Origin: Haloquadratum walsbyi C23
GTDB lineage: Archaea > Halobacteriota > Halobacteria > Halobacteriales > Haloferacaceae
DNA length: 32,000 nt
Assembly (NCBI RefSeq): GCF_000237865.1
Contig: NC_017459.1
Coordinates: 120,001 to 152,000, forward strand
Direction of reading: 5' to 3'
The first letter of the stretch is position 1; every line of letters starts with the position of its first letter. Positions 1 to 23,505 of the stretch are shown in pieces. Under the pieces are notes generated by a model. The model did no database searches, had not been told where the DNA came from, and worked only from the letters and a program-made list of their open reading frames with translations. The position numbers were made by a program, and so were the translations under genes.

Positions 1-3000
1 CGACATGAATTGCGTCGGGGCGCGACCTTGCATCTCTAAGGCTTGAGTGTCGTCACCAACGGTCCCGAAGCCGGTTGCTCCACCCGACGAGCCGCTTCCG
101 GTCGCAGCCGTCTGGTTGGTCGCGCCTTTGTCCCAGTAGGCGCCCGAAAGTTGCCCAGTATTGTTCCCGACGAGTCCGCCAACGGTGCTCCCGCCCTTGA
201 CGCGTCCGCTGGCGTACGACCGAGTTACATCTACATCCTCGGTCTCGCCGACGAGACCACCAACTTTGTCGCCCGATGTGGTGACATCACCGCGCGCGTA
301 CGAATCGGTAATAGACCCGTCATTATTCGTATCGCCGATGAGTCCACCAACGTAGTCGCCATCAGTGGAGACGTTGCCTCGTGCATACGATGTTTCGACA
401 CCATCGCCATCCTTGTAGTACCCAATCAGCCCACCGACCCGCTGTCCAGTTGCGTCAACGTCACCGGTGGCCGAGGCGTTTGTCAGGATGTGATCAGCTG
501 AATCGTGGTGAAGTTCGCCAAACAGTCCACCGACTAGGTTCCCGCCTCCGGGGTCACTGGCGTTGACATCACCGGTAGCAGAGACATCTGTCACGTTTCC
601 TGCGTTCTGGAACTCTCCGACGAGCCCGCCGGTATACGCATCTGTCCCCGTGTTCGTCGCGTTAACGACGCCCGAAGCATGAGCGTTAGAGACGGTGATC
701 GGGTTCCCGGAACTTGACTTCGCCTGACCGACCAATCCGCCCACGTACCCACCGGAGGTGCCGTTCACGCTCCCGCCTGCAGAGGCGTTGATCACGTCAG
801 CCTGCCCCCGGCCGAGGAGACCACCAATGTAGCTCGTCCCGGTGACAGCCCCGGAGGCGTTCACGTCGGTCACCGGCGTCGTACTCTGGTGATCACCGAT
901 GAGACCACCAGCGTACTGATCAGTCGCGGTGACGGTCCCGCTCGCACTGGCGTTGTTCACCGCGCCGTTACTCTCTCCGACCAGTCCACCGATGGACTGA
1001 CTGCCGTTTGCGGTCGCCGTTGTGGTCGCGTCAGTAACGACACCGCCACTATTGACGGTTCCAACGAGACCACCAATCCGATCGCTTCCGCGGACGGCTC
1101 CCGAGGCGGTGACGTTCTGGACCGTGTCGTTGTTGGCTCCGACGGCCACGCCGAGGTCGTTGACCCCGTCTATCGAGGCGTCCTCGACCGTTAGGTTCTG
1201 GATTGTGCCGTCGTTAGTTCCGGCTACCACGCCAAGTTCGTCGCTCCCGGTGACCGAGGCGTTCTGGATTGTCAGATTCTGGATCGCCCCGTTCGAGTCG
1301 AGCGCGCCGACGAGCCCAGCCGTGCTCGCTCCGCTTCGGTTGATCGACAGGTTCGAAATCGTGGTGTCGTTACCGTCAAGTGAGCCGGTGAATGGCGCAA
1401 TCGGCTCGAAGCCGCTGCCACCGTTCCACGAGGCGTTGCCCGTCGCCGACGTGTCGATATCTTCGGCGAGTCGGTAATTATCAGCACGCGCAGCACTGCT
1501 GTTGTCGATTGCTTGCAGATCTGCAAGCGAGTCGATCAGGTACGGATTGTCAGCGGTGCCGTTTCCGCTATACACCGCGGTCAATTCTTCGCCATCTTCG
1601 CGGACGTAAGTTCGTACCGCCCCATCGCTCACGGTGACCGTCGCGTTCGCCGTCGCGGTCGAATAGCCGACCACAGTAAATGTCGGGCTAAACGTCCCGG
1701 TATCCGATTCAGTGATCGAGAGTGTTGCGGTCCCCGTCTCGTTCGTCACGGCCGTAGCGTTCTCAAGGCTGGTGAGACCTCCGGTATCCTGAACGCCCAC
1801 GATGAGCCCCTCAGCCGTGCTGGTGCCAGCTGTCGTCACTGTGACCGAAACCGAGACCTGCTCGGACTGAATCGCGCTCGCGTTGGTAGCGGTGACCGTA
1901 TTGACTGTGCGAGGTGGCTGTTCGGTTCCAGTCGACTGCGCCTGCAAGACCGGATAGCCCCGTGTGACGTTCCACGTAGTCGTGTAGTGTAGCCCATCCA
2001 TGAGCTCAGTCGCCGCCCGACCCTGCATCTGCGGTGCCGGCGTGGTGTCACCGACAGATCCGTAGCCAGTTGCCCCGTCCGGCGTGCCGCTTCCTGTCGC
2101 ATCCGACTGGGCAGTCGCGCCTTTGTCCCAGTAAGACTCGGAGATCTGCCCTGAGTTATCACCGATGAGCCCGCCAAGACCACTGTTCCCCTCAACTCGG
2201 CCGCTCGCGTACACGCGTGCCGTGTCGCCGTTTGTCTGCCCGATGAGTCCGCCGACGGGTCCCGTCCCAGAGACATTACCCTGTGCGTATGAGTCCTGCA
2301 CTGTACCGAGCGTCCCTTCAGTGCCCCCAATCAGCCCACCGGTTGGCCCAGCCGCATCCGCGTTGACATCACCTGTCGCGGAGGCGTTTGCCACAATGTT
2401 TGCCCCCGATTCGTGGTCAATTACCCCGATGAGTCCGCCAACATGCTCACCATTAAAACCAGTACTAGCGGATACATTGACTTGACCACTGGCGGAGACG
2501 TTCGTCACGTTCTTTGCGTTTCGAATTTCGCCAATAAGTCCGCCGACGTACCCGCGACCGCTGCCGACTGCCGCGGTGACATCACCGCTTGCGTCCGCAT
2601 CAGAGATACTAACGGGACTGGTCTGTATGGCACCAACCAGTCCACCGGCGCCCTGGTTTCTGGTCGACACGTTACCTGATGCCGAGACGTTTGCAATTGT
2701 CGCTACCTGGCTTGGGTCGTGCTTGCCGATCAGTCCACCGACGTTACTACCAGTACTATTCACGTCCCCAGTTGCTGACGAACGTCGGATGATGCTGGCG
2801 TCCGCCGATCCGAGTAATCCACCAACACTCTGGCCAGTCGCAGAGACGTTGCCTCGTGCATTCGAGTCCTCGACTGTACCGCCACCACTGTATGTCCCGA
2901 TTAATCCGCCGACTTGACCGTTCGTGTCAGTAGCAACATCGCCCGTCGCAGAGGCATTTGCAACGATGCGTGATGCCGATTCGTGCTCAAAGCTACCGAT

Positions 3001-6000
3001 GAGTCCGCCAACACGTCCATTGACGCCTTGTTTTCCGGCGATAGAGGCATTCACCTGACCAGTGGCGGAGACGTTTGTCACGTTCTTTGCGTTTTGAATC
3101 TCACCGATGAGTCCACCGGTGAAAGCATTGTTACCGCTGAGATCCGATGTCGTAACATTACCATCAGCACGCGCGTTCAAGATAGTGACAGGAGAGCCGG
3201 AAATCGAACTGCCAACCAGTCCACCAACGCGCACGCCCTTACTGGTCGAAACATCACCCGACGCCGAGACGTTTGCAATTGTCGCTACCTGAGTTGGGTC
3301 GTGCTCACCGATGAGTCCACCGACGTTAGATCCGGTAGTACCGTTCACGCGCCCGCTCGCCGAGGAATCGGTCACGTTAGCCTGTGCTCGACCAATCAGC
3401 CCACCGGTGCTCTCTGTCCCGGTGACGGCCCCGGAGGCACTCACGTCGGTTACCGGAGTCGAACTCTGGTGATCGCCAATGAGCCCACCAGCGTACTGCC
3501 CGGTTGCAGTGACAGTTCCGCTCGCACTGGCATTGTTCACCGCCCCGCTACTCTGTCCGACTAACCCGCCAATGGACTTGCTCCCGCTTGTAGTCGCGGC
3601 TGCAGTTGAGTCGGTTAAGACGCCACCAGAGTTGACCGTCCCAACGAGGCCCCCGATCCGGTCATTTCCGATAACCGTCCCTGAGGCAGTGACGTCCTGG
3701 ACGGTACCAGTGTTGATTCCGACTGTCACACCGACGTCGTTGTTCCCGGTGACAGAGGCGTTCTCGATGGTCAGGTTCTGGATCGTTCCGTCGCTGGTCC
3801 CGGCTATCACACCGAGGTCGTCGCTCCCGGTGACAGAGGCGTTCTGGATTGTCAGATTCTGGATTACCCCGCTGGAATCGAGCGTGCCGACGAGCCCAGC
3901 CGTACTCGTGTCGCTCCGATTGACAGATAGATTCGAGATTGTGTGCCCGTCTCCGTCGAGCGTACCATCGAATGTTCCGCTCTCACCCGCAATCGGTTCG
4001 AAGCCGTTGCCACTGTTCCAGGAGGCGTTGTTCGTCGCCGACGTGTCGATATCCTCGGCGAGTCGGTACTGTTCACCACGCGTGGTCGCGTTGATGTTGA
4101 TCGCTTGGAGATCCGCGAGCGAGTCGAGGAGGTACGGGCTCGTGTCCGTCCCGTTACCGGGATACGTCGCCGTTAGCTCGGTGTCGTCATCACGAGTGTA
4201 CGTCCGCACTGTGCCCGGCTCCACCTCGACCGTCGCGGTCGTCGAGACGGTCGATTCTCCCGCTGCACCGAACGTCGGCTCGAACGTCCCGATTGCTGAT
4301 TCGGCGAAGGTGAACGTTGCAGTGCCGTTCGCGTCGGTCACGGCCCCGGCGTCCGCGAGTTCGGTGAGGCCGTCCGCGTTGTCGACACGGATCACATAGC
4401 CTGCATCAGCAGGGGTACCGTCGACCGTCGCGGTGACGTCGATCGTCGTCTGCTCGGTCTGCAGTGCTGTCGTGTCGGAGGCCTCCATCGAGTCGATGGG
4501 CGAAAGCGAGGGCCCGGTCGTGTTCGACTCCCGTTGGAAGACCGGATACGTACTCGTGAGCTTCCACGGCGACGTGTAGTTCAACGGCTTCATGAACGTC
4601 GTCGGCGCTCGGCCCTGCATCTCCAAGGCGCGGGTGTCGCCGACTGTCCCGAAGCCAGTGGCTCCAGCCGACGAGCCGCTTCCGGTTGCACCCGTCTGGT
4701 TGGTCGCGCCCTTGTCCCAGTAGGCGTCCGAGAGTGCTCCGTTGTTGTTCCCGACGAGTCCGCCGACAGTGCTCCCGCCCTCGACGCGTCCGCTGGCGTA
4801 CACGCGCTTCACATCTCCGCTCGCTTCACCGACGAGGCCACCAACGTAGTCTCCCGAGCTATTGACATCACCGCGCGCGTACGAATCGGTGATAGAACCG
4901 CCATTCGTATCGCCGATGAGTCCACCAACGTAGTCACCATCAGTGGAGACGTCGCCTCGTGCATACGAGGTTTCGACTCTATCGCCATTCTGGTGGTAGC
5001 CGATTAGCCCGCCGACTCGCTGTCCCGTCGCGTCAACGTTACCGGTGGCCGAAGCATTCGTCAGGATGTAGTTTGCCGAATCATGGTGAAGTTCGCCGGC
5101 TAGTCCGCCGACTCGGCGACCGTTTCCGGAGGCACTGGAGATATTAACATTGCCGGTGGCAGAGACATTTGTCACGTCGGTCGCGTGTCGAAGCCTGCCA
5201 AAGAGTCCCCCGGCGTACGCGTACGTACCAGTGTTTGTTGTGACGACATCACCTGTGGCGTGTACATCAGAGACAGTAATCTGGTTAACAGACTCCGAAG
5301 TACCGACCAGTCCACCGACTTTCTGACCACTGGTCGATACGTTACCCGACGCTGAGACGTTCGTGATCGTCGCCGCTTGATTATGGCGGTGATCGCCGAT
5401 CAGTCCGCCAACCCGGTCGCCAGACGTACTATTCACCTCGCCGCTGGCGGTCGACTCTCGGATGTTGCTGGCGTCCGTCTGTCCGAGTAACCCGCCGATA
5501 TGATCTCCCCCACCCGACACGGTGCCGGTCGCGGTGGCATTTCTCACCACCTCACCGTTCTGGTGATACCCGATGAGCCCACCGACTCGCTGTCCTGTCG
5601 CGTCAACGTCACCAGTGGCCGAAGCGTTCGTCAGGATGTAGTTTGCCGAATCATGGTGAAGTTCGCCAAACAGTCCGCCGACTCGGCGACCGTAGGAATT
5701 ATCTTGAGCGGAAACGTCACCGGTGGCGGAGACGTTTGTCACGTCGACGGCGTGTCGAAGTCGACCGAAGAGTCCCCCGGCGTACGAGTTTGTACCAGTC
5801 TCCGTTGCATTGATCTCACCCGTAGCGTGGGCATCAGAGACGGTGATCTGGTTGCCGGACTCCGAAGCACCGACCAGTCCACCGACTTTCTGACCCCCGG
5901 CCGACACGTTACCTGACGCTGAGACGCTCTCGATTGTCGCTGCCTGATTAGGGCGGTGTTCGCCGATCAGTCCGCCAACGTACCCGCCGGATGTGCTCGT

Positions 6001-9000
6001 CACGGTCCCACTAGCTGAGGAGTTGCTCACGCTCGCACTTACACGTCCGAACAGTCCGCCTGTGTAGTCGCCGTCACTGGCGACGTCACCAATCGCAGAG
6101 ACGTTTTCAATTGTCTCACCGTTCGTATGATCGCCAATCAGTCCACCCGCGTAACCAGCGCCACCCGACACATCGCCAGTCGCGGTGGCGTCTCTCACCA
6201 CCTCACCGTTCTGGTGGTAGCCGATGAGCCCGCCGACTCGCCGTCCCGTCGCGTCAACATCACCGGTGGCCGAGGCGTTCGTCAGGATGTAATTAGCTGA
6301 ATCGTGGTGGAGTTGGCCAAACAGTCCGCCGACTTGGCGACCATAGGAGTTGTCTTGAGCCGAAACGTCACCGGTGGCGGAGACGTTTGTCACGTCGACA
6401 GCGTGTCGAAGTCGACCGAAGAGTCCCCCGACGTACGAGTTCGTGCCGGTCTCTGTCGCGTTGACGTCACCCGTAGCGTGGGCGTTAGAGATGGTAATCC
6501 GGTCGGTAGTCTCTGAGGTGCCGACCAGCCCACCGACCTTCTGGCCACTGGTTGATACGTTGCCTGACGCCGAGACGCTCTTGATTGTCGCCGCCTGATT
6601 GGGGCGGTGATCGCCGATCAGTCCACCAACCTTGTTGCCAGACGTGCTATTCACGTCACCGCTGGCGGACGACTCTCGGATGACGCTAGCGTCCGTCTCT
6701 CCGAGTAATCCGCCGACCCTCTTTCCCACAGTTGATACGTCGCCCGTTGCAGTAACGTTATTGATCGTCCTCCCTTTGTCGTGATACCCGATCAGCCCGC
6801 CGACGCGCTGTCCAGTTGTGTCAACATCGCCGCTTGCTGACGCGTTTGCAACGATATAATTAGCTTGATCGTGGTGGAGTTCGCCAAACAGTCCGCCAAC
6901 TCGGCGACCGTTTCCGGGCGTACTGGAAGCGTTGACATCACCGGTAGCAGAGACGTCTGTCACGTCGGTCGCGTGTCGAAGCTCGCCAAAGAGCCCCCCG
7001 GCGTACGCGTACGTGCCAGTGTTTGTTGTGACGACATCACCTGTGGCGTGTACATCAGAGACAGTAATCTGGTTGCCAGACTCCGAGCTGCCGACCAATC
7101 CACCGACCCGGTTGCCGCTGCCCGACACGTTACCCGATGCCGAGACGTTCCTGATCGTCGCCGCCTGATTGGGATTGTGATTGCCGATCAATCCACCAAC
7201 CCGGTCGCCGGACGTGCTCGTCACGTCGCCGCTGGCGGAGGCGTTGATGACGCCGGTCCGCGCCCGCCCGACGAGGCCGCCAGTGTAGCTGGTTCCGGTG
7301 ACAGCCCCCGAGGCGTTCACGTCGGTCACCGGCGTCGAACTCTGGTGATCACCGATGAGCCCACCGGCGTACTGCCCGCTCGCGGTGACAGTCACGCTCG
7401 CGCTGACGTTGTTCACAGTCCCTCCAGACGTGACAGTCCCAACGACGCCACCGATTTCCCGGCGGCCCTCGACCGTCCCTGATACGGTGACGTTCTGGAC
7501 AGTCCCAGCGCTTTCTCCGACCACCGCACCGATGTGTCTGTCACCGACGACCGAGACGTTCGTGAGAGCGAGGTTCCGAACCACACCACCCGATTCCAGT
7601 GTCCCGACGAACCCGAGCTCGTTTTTTGTAGTCGCACTCTGATCGATCGACAGGTTCGATATCGTGTGGCCGCCGCCGTCGAGCGAGCCACTAAATGCGG
7701 CACCGCTGTCGATGCCAAACAGCCCACCGATCGGCGCGAACCCTTTCCCGTGTTCGCTGGGCACGTTCCACGACCGCGTGGCCGAGGCGTCGAGGTCGGA
7801 GCCCAGCTGATAGTTGTATCCGCGCGTGGTGGCGTTTTTGTTGATCGCCTGTAGATCGACGAGCGAGTCGATGATGTACGGGTCCACCGTCGACCCGTTG
7901 CCGGCAAACGTGCCGGTCTGGATGGTACCGTTGACCTCGTGATCCCACGACGCCTGACTCCCGGCAATCGTCGTTGCGCTGGCGTTGTTCCCCAGCGAGT
8001 CTGTCATCGACACGATTACCTCCCGAGACAGCGCCGGGTTCGCCCCAACAGTCACATTCCCGGTGAAGTTCCCGTTGCCGGTGTCTGTCAGCGTGACGGA
8101 ATCACTGTCGGCATCCAGTGCGGAGACGTCGGCCGTGGCAGTGGTGATTGAGCCGGCCTCGGACACGGTCGCGTTGATATCGAACGTATCTCCCTCCGAC
8201 AGCGGCGCGGTGCCACCGGTCCGTGTGATCGTCACCGAATCGATACTTGGGGGTGAAGTGTCCACTGCGAGCGTGTTCGACCGGGTGCCGGTCACCTGCG
8301 TGCTGGCGTTCCAGGCGAGATAGCCGACAGTCGTAGGTGCGTGCCCATCTTTATCAATCGCTGCATCCTCTTCAACCCGAACGTCGACACTGTCTTTCGT
8401 GCGATCATCATAACGGAGATAGGCTGGTTGACCTCCACTGCTATCTTGCAGATCAGCAATAAATCCGGCAGGATGCGGGTCGTCGAAAGTGATTTTCTTA
8501 AGCTGGTTATTGACCCCGCTGATCTCGTCAGCAGTGAAGTTCGTCTCACCCAGCACTGAGTCGCCCTGTTCAATAGCGATGTACCCTATCGTCTCGGTCC
8601 CGTGTGCCGTCCCGTCGTTTCCGCTCGCTTCGTCTTCTTGAATAAACACGTCCAGCCCGTTCGAGTCGATGTTTTGATTTCGCGTGCTCACCGCGTCGGG
8701 ATCGTTGAATGTCTGCGGTTGCGTAAATCCGATTGGCGTGCCGGATAATGACTGGTTAAACGCGACTGAATTGATCGTGCCTTCGCTCAGAGTTGTCGTC
8801 CCAGCGTCAACTTTTGTCCCGTCGTCGAGTTCTGTCGTGCCGGCCTCGGCTACGATGTATGAGACGTTCGCGGTCGGGTGGCCGTTGTCTTGGTTCGACC
8901 ACTCCTCGACGCGAATCTCGAAGGAATCCGACTGGACGTTCCGAATACGGGTGTGGCCGCGCTTCTCCGTGGCCACGTCTTCGCTATCTTTTTTAGATGA

Positions 9001-20114: not shown

Positions 20115-20472
20115 AGGTATCGGAGGCTCAATATCAAAACGAACCATACTCATTACGGCGGTGCGAGGAGAAAGCCCCCGCGCTTCAGGGCTGTCTCTTA
20201 CCCACAACTCGAGTCAGGATTTTAGCGGAACGGGATCGGCGATCCCGACTGAAATCCTCGGTGTCTACAGTTTCAGCATCTCTTTGGAACAATTGTAGTG
20301 GGCTTGATTACCGACGTTCTGTCACCCCCACAGCCGATATCACTGTCTGAATCGCTTCTCGCCTCGGTTTTTTGAGTTCAAAATACCTCTGAAAGCGTCT
20401 GAAACGTCCGGTTACGACTCCACAAACTTATGGGTAAGAGACAGCCGTTCACGGCGGGATGAATCTGACAAC
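20115..20472 (+). mobile_element. Short tnpB-tail/right-end remnant split by a MITE insertion.
   Basis: 20131-20190 (ATATCAAAACGAACCATACTCATTACGGCGGTGCGAGGAGAAAGCCCCCGCGCTTCAGGG) parallels 20711-20775 of the fuller copy. The end box GGGATGAATCTGACAAC resumes at 20456-20472, after the MITE. Confidence 0.4.
20189..20446. mobile_element. MITE-like element of about 258 bp with perfect 16-bp terminal inverted repeats (GGCTGTCTCTTACCCA / TGGGTAAGAGACAGCC).
   Basis: The TIRs lie at 20189-20204 and 20431-20446. There is no ORF inside. An internal long hairpin reads AGGATTT..CGGGATCGGCGATCCCG..AAATCCT. The flanks CTTCAGGG and GTTCACGG could be a decayed target duplication. Confidence 0.55.
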
Positions 20473-20477
20473 CCCTA

Positions 20478-20788
20478 CGTGAACCACGTTCGACGTGTCG
20501 AACGGATGGGTTAAGTGACGAGATGCCGTATCGATACATAACCGAGGCGGTCTACCCCACTAATCGGATAATATCGGGATTCCCCGATTCCATGCAGAAA
20601 GCACCCCTTTCTGTTGTGGAACTCAGGGTGCAGTAAGAAGTACCTCCGAATCCCATGCCGGGATAGGAGTAACGGCTGGCTGGCACAGCCAGGAGCCGTC
20701 ATCGAGACGGCTACAAATCTTGAACATCCCAATCCAGCGGCGCGGTGCCGTGGGAATCTTCGCCCTTCAGGGCGGAGAGGATGTCAAG
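20478..20788 (+). mobile_element. Decayed 3' end of an IS1341/IS605-family tnpB gene plus its right-end hairpin (an omega-RNA-type module). No intact ORF remains.
   Basis: One frame reads ...CRDRSNGWLAQPGAVIETATNLEHP. The DR.NGWLAQP block is one I recall near the C-terminus of haloarchaeal TnpB proteins. It is followed by the hairpin CGCCC-TTCA-GGGCG and GAGAGGATGTCAAG, ending at 20788. Stops interrupt all frames upstream. Confidence 0.5.
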
Positions 20789-20795
20789 TCTAACC

Positions 20796-21776
20796 TCAAT
20801 ATTGATCAGTCGTTGATGATGGCATTGGATTATCCTTTTCCTGGTTGGTCGTATTGAGCATATGAATACGCTCTTTCACAGTTTCTGAAATAATCTCCTC
20901 AGGCGGAAGCCCCTGGTCGATTGTTCCTGTTCCTGTTCCTGTTCTTGTTCCTGTATACGAGTGAGATAATTCTGACGCGTACTCAAGCACTGCTTGCGTA
21001 GCCGTCTTACCAACGGCGGATGCACCGACTGCAACAGCAAGTGCAAAGATATCAGCTTCAAGATTTCCATCATATGTAGTATTCTCATCGTCTTTTATCC
21101 GCTGGAGCGTTTGGTCCTGACCAAAGGCACGGACAACGCCCACCGCTCGACCTGCCGCGTCAGTCCGAGCAAGCAAAGCAAATCCACGTGAGACGAATAC
21201 ATCCGCAGCAAGAACCTCAAGATCGGCGTCAATATCTTTTTTTATCCCCGTCTTTGCTGTTGTTGACCCGACCCATGGTTCTGTGTCAGCGAGCGTTCGG
21301 GTGAGGCGTAATCCTTCATATATTAATTGTACGCCCGCTGCACGGTCAACTAACGATAATCGATGCACATTCTCAGCTGCGTCTGTCTGTTGAGTGAGAC
21401 GGCGATGACCGGATGACTCATCCGCTGATTCCTTGTTCAGATTACCGCTTGATTCGGCATTTGGGTCATGAGAATGCACTTCGCTGTCGTTGACCCCGGA
21501 TTCAGGAATATGTCCATGAGTCCCTCCAGATGCATTCCCAGCTCCATCGCTGATTGGTGGTCCATCTCGGTCCTGGTCTTTACCCTTGTCTTGCATATCA
21601 TCAGTGTCGCCACTCTCATCAGAACTGCTGAGTGCACGAGCGCTCGCGAGTGTAAGCACCGCGGGTGTCATCGCCGTGTCTGTGAGGCGAGTGTGAAGCG
21701 CCGTGCGGAGAGGACCAGGTTCAATATCCATAACTGCCTCCCGGGCGGCGTCACGGACCCGCACGGCATCGTCCAT
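20796..21776 (-). CDS. Hypothetical acidic protein with a long low-complexity insert and a (Gly-Thr)n tract.
   Basis: The start is ATG and the product is 326 aa. The composition is halophile-like and acidic. The flanks look conserved (AGVQLIYEGLRLTRTLADTEPW, VLAADVFVSRGFALLARTD) around a D/E/S/G-rich insert. I recognise no family. Confidence 0.7.
   Translation of the reverse strand: MDDAVRVRDAAREAVMDIEPGPLRTALHTRLTDTAMTPAVLTLASARALSSSDESGDTDDMQDKGKDQDRDGPPISDGAGNASGGTHGHIPESGVNDSEVHSHDPNAESSGNLNKESADESSGHRRLTQQTDAAENVHRLSLVDRAAGVQLIYEGLRLTRTLADTEPWVGSTTAKTGIKKDIDADLEVLAADVFVSRGFALLARTDAAGRAVGVVRAFGQDQTLQRIKDDENTTYDGNLEADIFALAVAVGASAVGKTATQAVLEYASELSHSYTGTRTGTGTGTIDQGLPPEEIISETVKERIHMLNTTNQEKDNPMPSSTTDQY
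20922..20954 (-). repeat. Hexanucleotide microsatellite (TGTTCC)n inside the CDS, encoding TGTRTGTGTGT.
   Basis: Reading directly gives TGTTCC x3, TGTTCT, TGTTCC, TGT. Confidence 0.9.
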
Positions 21777-23142: not shown

Positions 23143-23213
23143 GCGCCGGTGGTCCAATGGTAGGACTCGGGCTTCCCAAGCCCGCGGTCCGGGTTCGATT
23201 CCCGGTCGGCGCA
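23143..23213 (+). tRNA. tRNA-Gly (anticodon CCC), 71 nt, no encoded CCA.
   Basis: The cloverleaf was folded by eye. The acceptor stem is GCGCCGG/TCGGCGC and the D stem is GTCC/GGAC. The anticodon stem CGGGC/GCCCG carries the loop TTCCCAA. The T stem CCGGG/CCCGG carries the loop TTCGATT, and the discriminator is A. A T-run (CTTTT) follows and an AT-rich TATA-like region precedes. Confidence 0.92.
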
Positions 23214-23270
23214 CTTTTGAGTCCTCTCTGACGACGATGGATTACCGAAGCACGGGAAGATGTCGAAATA

Positions 23271-23448
23271 GGGTGCATGCAGTAAGAAGTACCTCCAGAT
23301 CCTCCAGATCCCCTACCGGCACAGGAGTACCAGTTGGTCGGCACAGCCAGTAGTCGTCATCGAGGCGTCTCCAAACTCTATTCATTCCAACTCAGCGGTA
23401 CAGTACCGTTGGAATATTTATGATTATCAGGGCAGAAATGATGTCAAC
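23271..23448 (+). mobile_element. Second decayed tnpB-tail/right-end module, homologous to 20625-20788.
   Basis: It shares the blocks GCAGTAAGAAGTACCTCC, GGCACAGCCAG, GTCATCGAG, CAGCGG, GGAAT, CAGGGC and GATGTCAA in the same order. The corresponding frame reads RSTSWSAQPVVVIEASPNS, versus RSNGWLAQPGAVIETATNL in the other copy. It contains an internal 9-bp duplication (CTCCAGATC x2). Confidence 0.5.
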
Positions 23449-23463
23449 TCCAACTCTATCTCA

Positions 23464-23498
23464 ATCGATAATCGATAGTCGATAGTCGATAGTCGATA
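23464..23498. repeat. Five tandem copies of the heptamer RTCGATA.
   Basis: The sequence reads ATCGATA ATCGATA GTCGATA GTCGATA GTCGATA. It sits between the IS remnant and the stop of the 66-aa gene. Confidence 0.9.
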
Positions 23499-23505
23499 AT
23501 ATAGT

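Follow-up and report, generated by a model that had tools for sequence, protein, structure and literature searches.

The class of PATEs (palindrome-associated transposable elements) was defined in Haloquadratum walsbyi (Dyall-Smith et al. 2011, PLoS One 6:e20968, PMC3119063), and one of its families, HqIRS54, has members of 370-381 bp. Table S9 of that study gives the 5' end of HqIRS54 as TTAC GGCGGTGCGAGGAGAAAGCCCC..., and also as TTAC GGCGGTGCGAGGAGAAAGCCCCGCCGTTCACGGCGGGATGAATC..., gives the 3' end as ...GGTGCCGTGGGAATCTTTGCCCTTCAGGGCGGAGGGGATGTCAA, and also as ...CGGCGCGGTGCCGTGGGAATCTTTGCCCTTCAGGGCGGAGGGGATGTCAA, and ties the HqIRS54 ends to ISHwa24 and ISNph18. The same study reported strain-specific PATE insertions and catalogued 'HqIRS54(targeted)' copies with an inserted repeat, one of them 635 bp long. 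In strain C23, all tnpA genes are disrupted and 17 of 100 tnpB genes are undisrupted; the latter include that of ISHwa24, a full-length tnpB element that is intact in this strain (PMC3119063 Tables S8 and S9).

IS200/IS605 elements are known from the literature to insert 3' of a tetranucleotide such as TTAC, with TnpA moving single strands. Retention of the element is promoted by TnpB and the omega RNA, which together cut the site left empty, made up of the TAM and the flank (Meers 2023). The gene-less elements of Geobacillus stearothermophilus 'often encode omega RNAs' and would need TnpB in trans, so that PATE-borne omega RNAs depending on a TnpB supplied in trans have already been proposed (Meers et al. 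2023). The RNA sot0042 (RF02656) is a sense-overlapping transcript of IS1341 tnpB and is now equated with omega RNA. The Halobacterium work on such transcripts, to which a preliminary description of our locus referred, is published (PMC4615843), and it also describes VNG_R6334, a sequenced intergenic RNA of 275 nt from pNRC200 268030-268304 (+) (Gomes-Filho et al. 2015, PMC4615843). VNG_R6334 and VNG_R0052 were both said to have an 'RE-like tetraloop'; VNG_R0052 was termed a PATE, and VNG_R6334 was not so described (Gomes-Filho et al. 2015, RNA Biol 12:490).

Here we examine two modules, A and B, in a stretch of 32,000 nt from H. walsbyi C23 (hereafter the window), which the preliminary description had treated as orphan tnpB tails. 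A 468-aa protein encoded in the window is identical to CCC39084.1 / WP_014555025.1 of this strain. Our reading, which we hold with good confidence for the explanation as a whole, mechanism included, is that A and B are the right-end halves of gene-less PATEs derived from IS1341-type, tnpB-only IS200/IS605 elements and located in the C23 chromosome.

Two related modules and the boundaries of PATE A

The + strand blocks at 20629-20787 (A) and 23278-23447 (B; 23267-23447 by profile) are homologous. Their pairwise alignment contains 125 identities, corresponding to 78.6% of A and 72.7% of aligned columns, which bears out the earlier impression of two related modules. Two stretches, the 18-mer GCAGTAAGAAGTACCTCC and the 21 nt at the terminus (TCAGGGCrGArAkGATGTCAA), are each present at exactly two places in the window, where chance alone predicts about zero, and the motifs common to A and B were recovered in 0 of 100 shuffles. 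Both modules terminate in GATGTCAA, the terminal box noted before, but the end coordinates had been placed one base too far, since the last base is 20787 in A and 23447 in B. The terminal hairpin was likewise attributed to both modules; it is present in A, with 8 bp and a UUCA loop, but not in B, where the 5' arm reads AUGAUU as opposed to GGGCAG.

The tail peptides in frame 1, ..CRDRSNGWLAQPGAVIE.. (A) and ..HRSTSWSAQPVVVIE.. (B), are of the DRSNGWLAQP type, as had been recognized in both modules, and match the C-terminal ends of annotated TnpB proteins on haloarchaeal plasmids (..QDRSNGWLAQPS.. in L012, from Halolamina, and ..EDRSTGWLAQPG.. in L013, from Halorientalis). Past the TnpB tail, the DNA of L012 and L013 continues into ...GGAGGATGTCAA. 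The window contains no tnpB: tblastn with two TnpBs matched only the 17-aa and 13-aa tail peptides of the modules, and Pfam revealed no TnpB domain among the larger window ORFs tested. The nuclease gene is therefore gone from the window, as stated earlier.

Module A is not the isolated tail of ~165 nt that it was taken for, because homology runs 190 nt further upstream and then, past a MITE, to 20157. The composite element, PATE A, measures 631 nt, or 377 nt without the 254-nt MITE, and is arranged in the order TTAC, left end (LE) split by the MITE, hairpin core, omega-RNA scaffold and TCAA. The features of both elements are listed below.

20153..20156, + strand: TTAC, the TAM-equivalent target tetranucleotide, directly before PATE A's left end; CATTAC followed by GGCGGTGCGAGGAGAAAGCC, matching the published HqIRS54 5' end
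20157..20190, + strand: LE part 1, reaching as far as the hairpin's 5' arm; assigned by sequence identity with the 5' end of HqIRS54 (PMC3119063 Table S9)
20191..20444, no strand assigned: 254-nt MITE within the LE hairpin, with Tn5-like inverted ends CTGTCTCTTACCC ... GGGTAAGAGACAG; recognized by the inverted repeat
20445..20538, + strand: LE part 2, with the remaining hairpin sequence, an invariant block (GGGATGAATCTGAC) and a TATA-like box; homologous to the LE of L012 and L013
20510-20517, + strand: TATA-like GTTAAGTG in LE part 2
20539..20628, + strand: PATE-specific core of three hairpins, the predicted 5' part of the RNA; from the family alignment
20629..20787, + strand: module A, homologue of the tnpB tail and omega-RNA scaffold, with the right-end TCAA; from Rfam, fold, profile and tail peptide
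20758..20777, + strand: right-end (RE) subterminal hairpin of 8 bp with a UUCA loop; read from the sequence and from compensatory changes
20788..20805, + strand: guide-equivalent flank GTCTAACCTCAATATTGA; from its position after TCAA and the 3' extension of VNG_R6334
23143..23214, + strand: tRNA-Gly(CCC), 27 nt upstream of B's TTAC; ARAGORN, and Rfam tRNA at 66.1 bits
23242..23245, + strand: TTAC ahead of B's LE stub; GGATTAC followed by CGAAGCACGGGAAG, resembling the family's TTAC followed by GGAAGTACGAGGAGAAAG
23246..23447, + strand: module B, an internally deleted, decayed PATE with its TCAA end at 23444-23447, with 23246-23266 as its LE stub and 23267-23447 as its right-end half; from the family profile, sot0042 and fold

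The published HqIRS54 ends match the window at 20153-20190 and 20740-20787, and the length of 377 nt without the MITE falls within the 370-381 bp given for the family. Both A and B have a TTAC 5' target and a ...GGATGTCAA 3' end with no target duplication, the right TCAA of A being at 20784-20787, and the elements are too short for TnpA or TnpB and encode neither. A carries subterminal palindromes without terminal inverted repeats, whereas neither hairpin is intact in B. PATE A is a member of the HqIRS54 family, and its boundaries are established. It retains an LE hairpin, which the MITE interrupts so that the two parts lie at 20177-20190 and 20445-20458. The MITE is flanked in PATE A by a degenerate duplication of ~9-10 nt, and a MITE of ~250 nt occupies the same LE position in TnpB-encoding elements on plasmids of other genera, including L013. 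Another TTAC, at 20412-20415, was considered as the left boundary of A and rejected in favour of 20153-20156, being itself part of the MITE.

Module B retains TTAC and ~20 nt of the left end, joined to the right-end half at GAAGATGTCGAAATAGGGTGCATGCAG, and has neither the LE hairpin nor the core. It contains a 9-nt tandem duplication, CCTCCAGAT x2, at 23292-23309. The G+C of B is 0.50, compared to 0.58 in the scaffold of A and 0.47 in the surrounding genome (47% in the window past 10 kb), so B's composition has drifted toward the genomic value. B represents an ancient copy of a related element and is most likely an inert relic.

RNA scaffold and dispersal of the family

Against the Rfam model of sot0042 (RF02656), module A scored 74.5 bits (E = 2e-18) and module B 14.2 bits (E = 1.6), both below the gathering threshold of 88 bits. 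In a calibration with known loci, the tnpB-linked copies reached 178.6 bits (L012) and 62.8 bits (L013), VNG_R6334 reached 76.3 bits and other PATE copies 75-78 bits; the shortfall of A is due to its shortened variable stem. The omega-RNA covariance scan suggested earlier succeeded in part, finding A, yet under the threshold, and not finding B. The homology claimed to the 3' end of an IS1341-type tnpB and to omega/sot RNA stands on the score of A and on the blocks it has in common with L012 and L013. The model of HgcC (RF00062) gave 33.9 bits (E = 2.5e-5) at 20671-20800, below its gathering threshold of 50 bits. We had also considered the extended conserved unit, with motifs such as GAGGAGAAAGCC, as an RNase P or group II intron-like RNA, which was rejected as Rfam returned sot0042 and no such hit.

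A profile built from the family matched A with 260 bits (E 2e-78) and B with 101 bits (E 4e-30), the latter over positions 86-257 only. The fold of A was better than that of shuffled sequences (z = -4.6 to -4.8; 0/200 shuffles equally good), and that of B was not (z = +0.28; 124/200 equally good). The consensus structure of 57 non-identical copies has 97.8% of its cells paired. Compensatory changes were seen in three helices: AU<->GC exchanges in 14-21 sequences in the core hairpin (columns 68-85), CG<->UA in 26 sequences and CG<->GC in 16 in the terminal hairpin, and a P3 hairpin that forms in nearly all of 45 variant sequences. The remaining helices are invariant and hence uninformative, and invariance of the core motif is a consequence of having searched with it. 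Many one-sided G-C/G-U/A-U exchanges are compatible with the + strand only. A long-range helix offered by RNAalifold, pairing core AUAUC with terminal GAUGU, is unsupported: its 5' side lies inside the sequence-collecting motif, and it appears invariant because the sample was chosen with that motif. These data show that the scaffold of A is homologous to the omega-RNA region of tnpB and that A is structurally intact.

In PATEs the tail derived from tnpB does not encode protein. Counts of variation at the three codon positions were 284/266/271, with no 3-periodicity, and in 22 copies there is a TGA inside the 'W' codon with the base pair retained. Since the tail is non-coding, we infer that the near-invariance of GGATAGGAGTAACGGCTGGTTGGCACAGCC reflects a constraint at the level of the RNA or of single-stranded DNA.

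Copies of the unit were found well beyond C23. A genome scan with the 18-mer matched Halopenitus, Halorubrum and H. walsbyi J07HQW1, and homology extended ~190 nt upstream of module A in 3/3. Searching plasmids by blastn recovered a unit of 340-370 nt without tnpB in Halobacterium salinarum pNRC200, Hbt. hubeiense, Halorarius and Haloferax gibbonsii, and only the last ~65 nt of the unit also matched the 3' ends of many annotated tnpB genes. Seven long copies have TTAC on the left, GATGTCAA on the right and unrelated flanks, except that the J07HQW1 copy ends in GATGATAT. A metagenome scan with the core motif, by which this family sample was therefore picked, yielded 102 stretches of uniform layout, in which 222-231 nt separate the core motif and the right end, and the unit is now known in six genera and in hypersaline metagenomes. 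Viral contigs scanned with two motifs gave no match. Among copies with both sides readable, TTAC stands at the left boundary in 56/59 distinct left contexts. All family right ends are GGATGTCAA-like, and the 64 distinct right flanks have random base composition from the first base past TCAA. Copies thus occur at many unrelated sites (64 right flanks, 59 left contexts, six genera), as is typical of PATEs. The TTAC/TCAA boundaries and the unrelated flanks indicate that the unit moves whole, and the HqIRS54-type family is mobile in this complete form among genera of haloarchaea.

Homology links the two ends of the PATE to those of intact tnpB elements (L012, L013). The left part of PATE A begins like the left ends of L012 and L013, with TTAC, GGAAGnnCGAGGAGAAAGCC, a hairpin and then GGGGATGAATCCGAC. 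The family profile matches L012 and L013 only from position ~101 on, and nothing in the 3' regions of tnpB elements matches the PATE core. Contig L041 carries both kinds of element 3 kb apart, a PATE and an intact TnpB (85% identical to L012) whose right end also matches the PATE profile. A full-length tnpB with a homologous end, which the preliminary description had made a test of its proposal, is reported intact in the C23 genome as ISHwa24 (PMC3119063 Tables S8 and S9). These tables are also our source for naming ISHwa24 as the cognate Haloquadratum TnpB; a protein search from L012 gave no Haloquadratum-named TnpB among the best 120 hits, all of which belonged to other genera.

The dispersal of the family bears on an alternative in which a full-length tnpB element lost its gene in place, leaving an inactive remnant that never moved in gene-less form. 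Such local pseudogene decay could apply to B, which is structurally decayed and could have been deleted in place, as B-type copies (profile positions 86-257) were found at the syntenic locus only, in ~0.9 Mb examined around loci selected via the core motif, a selection that would miss short B-like forms elsewhere. Internal deletions of IS605-type elements are also frequent in Haloquadratum (PMC3119063). For A, however, the reading is already contradicted: its LE-core-RE layout, with a core absent from tnpB elements, recurs at at least 64 unrelated flanks and in six genera, so the deletion is older than the dispersal. We therefore consider local decay an unlikely account of the pair. A is half of a mobile gene-less PATE and not the leftover of a local gene loss.

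Predicted transcript, proposed mechanism and possible host function

VNG_R6334 is the RNA of the PATE copy on pNRC200 (267947-268286). It starts 84 nt into the element, just ahead of the core hairpins, and its 3' end lies 18 nt past TCAA, which is a guide-length extension. Relative to the mapped start of VNG_R6334, positions -29 to -22 of the family consensus read TTTTAAGT, a TATA-like box; in A this box is weakened to GGTTAAGT (20510-20517). By homology to VNG_R6334, A would give rise to an RNA of ~265 nt, from ~20539 to ~20805. The guide-equivalent flank of A overlaps the stop codon (20796-20798) and the last codons of a convergent DUF7114 gene; the exact DUF7114 protein is not on record. 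It had been noted earlier that the guide would run into this stop codon, and the overlap is real, but it merely reflects the insertion site. The flank is unique in the window, and no TTAC + guide site was found in the window.

In the population, all C23-like environmental contigs examined carry both modules, at 97-99% identity, and one environmental strain (L127) has a 45-nt deletion inside the scaffold of A. In some strains a different left flank is present from 20444-20450 leftward, and in L086 that left flank is combined with another right flank, which indicates recombination between PATE copies. Scaffold variability in A was 1.9% versus 2.9% in adjacent intergenic DNA, and with too few differences among these near-identical contigs the lower value is not clearly below the higher one and shows no selection for A in this host. 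Syntenic loci of the J07HQW1 lineage gave no profile match, and the intergenic region there is 300 nt as compared to 730 nt. No clean empty-site junction (TTAC directly followed by the flank) was found in the J07HQW1-lineage intergenic DNA, which is too diverged, and short matches to PATE parts within it were unconvincing.

These observations also speak to a domesticated small RNA, in which A would have acquired a host function, such as antisense action on the DUF7114 gene or one in which the UUCA-loop hairpin works independently of TnpB. Overexpression of sot0042 and of VNG_R0052, another PATE-derived RNA, gave better growth of Halobacterium (PMC4615843), A is retained in every C23-like contig examined, and it is arranged tail to tail with the DUF7114 gene, with its predicted 3' end over the stop codon. 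We nevertheless regard this explanation as improbable: flanks differ at every copy, so there is no common target, the J07HQW1 lineage has no recognisable copy at the syntenic site, and one strain has lost 45 nt of the scaffold. Moreover, conservation tracks the transposon ends and the scaffold blocks common to tnpB elements. Chance resemblance or a low-complexity artefact, to which the sub-threshold Rfam scores might point, has a negligible probability given the sot0042 E-value of 2e-18, profile E-values of 2e-78 (A) and 4e-30 (B) and the absence of the motifs from 100 shuffles.

If A and B are gene-less PATEs, as we favour, movement of PATE A would need the Y1 transposase (TnpA) in trans. The TATA-like element in A's left end would drive an RNA comprising the core, the scaffold and ~18 nt of flank; this would be a guide RNA that lacks a nuclease of its own. 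Loaded with this RNA, a cognate TnpB of the ISHwa23/24 type would be expected to cut only the emptied site, TTAC + GTCTAACC..., the predicted target being TTAC-GTCTAACCTCAATATT, after which recombination could restore the PATE, as has been demonstrated for elements that are complete. The occupied site would be immune, because there the guide match is preceded by TCAA and not by TTAC. Trans-loading of A's RNA by TnpB is plausible. Loading of an RNA from B would be unlikely, as the terminal hairpin is lost and the fold shows no excess over shuffles. This makes A a plausible substrate for trans-loading and B, with its decayed scaffold, a built-in negative control. The present-day mobility of A is doubtful due to its weakened TATA-like box and its MITE-split LE hairpin.

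A stronger version of this mechanism would make PATEs guide-only hitchhikers, with their own left-end promoter, a trimmed omega RNA and a TnpB borrowed from ISHwa23/24-type elements, and with A still competent; we put this forward tentatively and lean against it. Were it true, homing and retention would be gained without a nuclease in polyploid haloarchaea, TnpA and TnpB would both be parasitised, and every PATE copy would add a programmable TnpB target (TTAC + flank). More generally, a TnpB guide-RNA module can travel and persist without the nuclease gene, which bears on the evolution of modular RNA-guided systems (TnpB to Cas12) and on selfish elements that exploit each other. For the window itself, the practical value lies mainly in annotation, the 'orphan tails' being catalogued PATEs.

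Comparison with known systems

The closest described system is HqIRS54 ('homogeneous PATE'), which agrees with A in organism, in the 5' end TTAC GGCGGTGCGAGGAGAAAGCCCC..., in the 3' end ...TTCAGGGCGGAG.GGATGTCAA and in length without the MITE. It is likewise without a transposase gene and has subterminal palindromes related to ISHwa24 and ISNph18, so that nothing essential differs. B, in contrast, is a truncated and divergent relative and not a complete HqIRS54.

The VNG_R6334 locus (pNRC200 267947-268286) is ~82% identical to 20456-20787, through the left end, core, scaffold and right end, and scores 76.3 bits against sot0042, compared to 74.5 bits for A. The RNA covers the core, the scaffold and 18 nt of flank. 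Expression was shown in Halobacterium only, whereas A has the weaker TATA-like box and a MITE in its LE.

The omega RNA of TnpB is reportedly the subject of Karvelis 2021 and Altae-Tran 2021. A has in common with it the blocks AAGUAyCUCCGA, GGAUAGGAGUAACGGCUGGuUGGCACAGCC, AUCCCAA..GUGGGAAU, the UUCA hairpin and GGAUGUCAA. The scaffold of A stops exactly at TCAA, the transposon right end, so that the flank would lie at the guide position. An omega RNA, however, lies partly within the 3' end of its own element's tnpB ORF, an overlap that A lacks, there being no tnpB in the window. The P3 stem of A is cut to a hairpin of ~6-10 bp, the 5' part is the PATE-specific core, and expression would use a left-end promoter and not the processing of a tnpB mRNA.

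The PATE-like IS605 elements of G. stearothermophilus (Meers et al. 2023) resemble A in having both ends and no protein genes. They are bacterial and unrelated in sequence, and the use of TnpB in trans is a proposal there too. HgcC (RF00062) resembles A in its terminal hairpin and GAGGAnGUCA end, but comes from hyperthermophilic Euryarchaeota and aligns convincingly in the 3' third only.

Already published are the element class, the HqIRS54 family, its presence in this genome, the expression of an orthologue and the idea of TnpB acting in trans. What is added here is the assignment of VNG_R6334 to the HqIRS54-type PATEs; the spread of the family over six or more genera, together with its hairpin core, which is specific to PATEs, and its conserved TATA-like box; and the finding that A is MITE-interrupted yet structurally intact, whereas B is decayed.

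Conservation of DNA and peptide at the tnpB 3' end

The DNA coding for DRS(N/T)GW(L/V)AQP is nearly identical (GATAGGAGTAmCGGCTGkkTGGCACAGCC) across the tnpB 3' ends of Halolamina (L012), Halorientalis (L013) and L104, despite only 50-57% identity among their TnpB proteins, and it is conserved to an equal degree in non-coding PATEs, the gene-less derivatives of IS200/IS605 elements. The peptide motif may therefore be kept mainly by the overlapping RNA.

Variation among PATE copies

Some environmental strains (L022, L083, L118, L120 and L121) retain the right flank of PATE A (20157-20787) and carry an unrelated left flank, with the break inside the PATE left end (window 20444-20450). In L086, this very left flank adjoins another right flank. 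Such an exchange of flanks is the pattern expected of recombination between two PATE copies, and it corresponds to the distribution of variability, which is highest among the segments in LE2 (part 2 of the left end, 21%) and in the core of PATE-specific hairpins (13%). In one environmental contig, L127, a 45-nt deletion (junction 2225/2226, window 20679-20723) removes stems P2/P3 of module A, the tnpB-tail or omega-RNA scaffold.

Neighboring genes and tandem repeats

The left part of the window differs in composition from the rest (G+C of about 60% vs. 47%) and contains a long frame that probably belongs to the H. walsbyi gene for the giant protein halomucin. No short plus-strand ORF within 1-10290 had a Pfam match.

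1-10290, minus strand: stop-free frame of >3430 codons, continuing beyond the left window edge
11053-12219, minus strand: 388-aa ORF without a Pfam match, adjoining the next
12222-13454, minus strand: 410-aa CapC-like (capsule biosynthesis) ORF

Two tandem repeats were also observed: the heptamer AATCGAT (x 5.4, 23463-23500), starting 16 nt past the right end of module B, a decayed PATE, and the hexamer TGTTCC (x 5.5, 20922-20954) within the DUF7114 gene. In-frame "polyrepeat" indels of the hexamer-repeat kind are listed among the differences between Haloquadratum strains (PMC3119063).

Insertions in IS605-type hairpins

Subterminal hairpins were interrupted by two kinds of insertion.

Window 20191-20444: 254-nt MITE with Tn5-like ends (CTGTCTCTTACCC...), within the left-end hairpin of PATE A
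L016, L055, L058, L059, L110 and L115: mini-insertion of ~55 nt, left-end hairpin
L005, 1930-1985: mini-insertion of ~55 nt, right-end hairpin

The same MITE lies in the identical hairpin of TnpB-encoding elements of Halorientalis, Haloplanus and Halobellus (L013, ~800-1050; plasmid matches H41-H47), which suggests that it targets IS605-type hairpins site-specifically. In L127 the MITE is 28 nt shorter (deletion of window 20363-20390). The mini-insertions, with two short hairpins apiece, split subterminal hairpins in several PATE copies and are similar to the small mobile repeats of which PATEs are said to be targets (PMC3119063).
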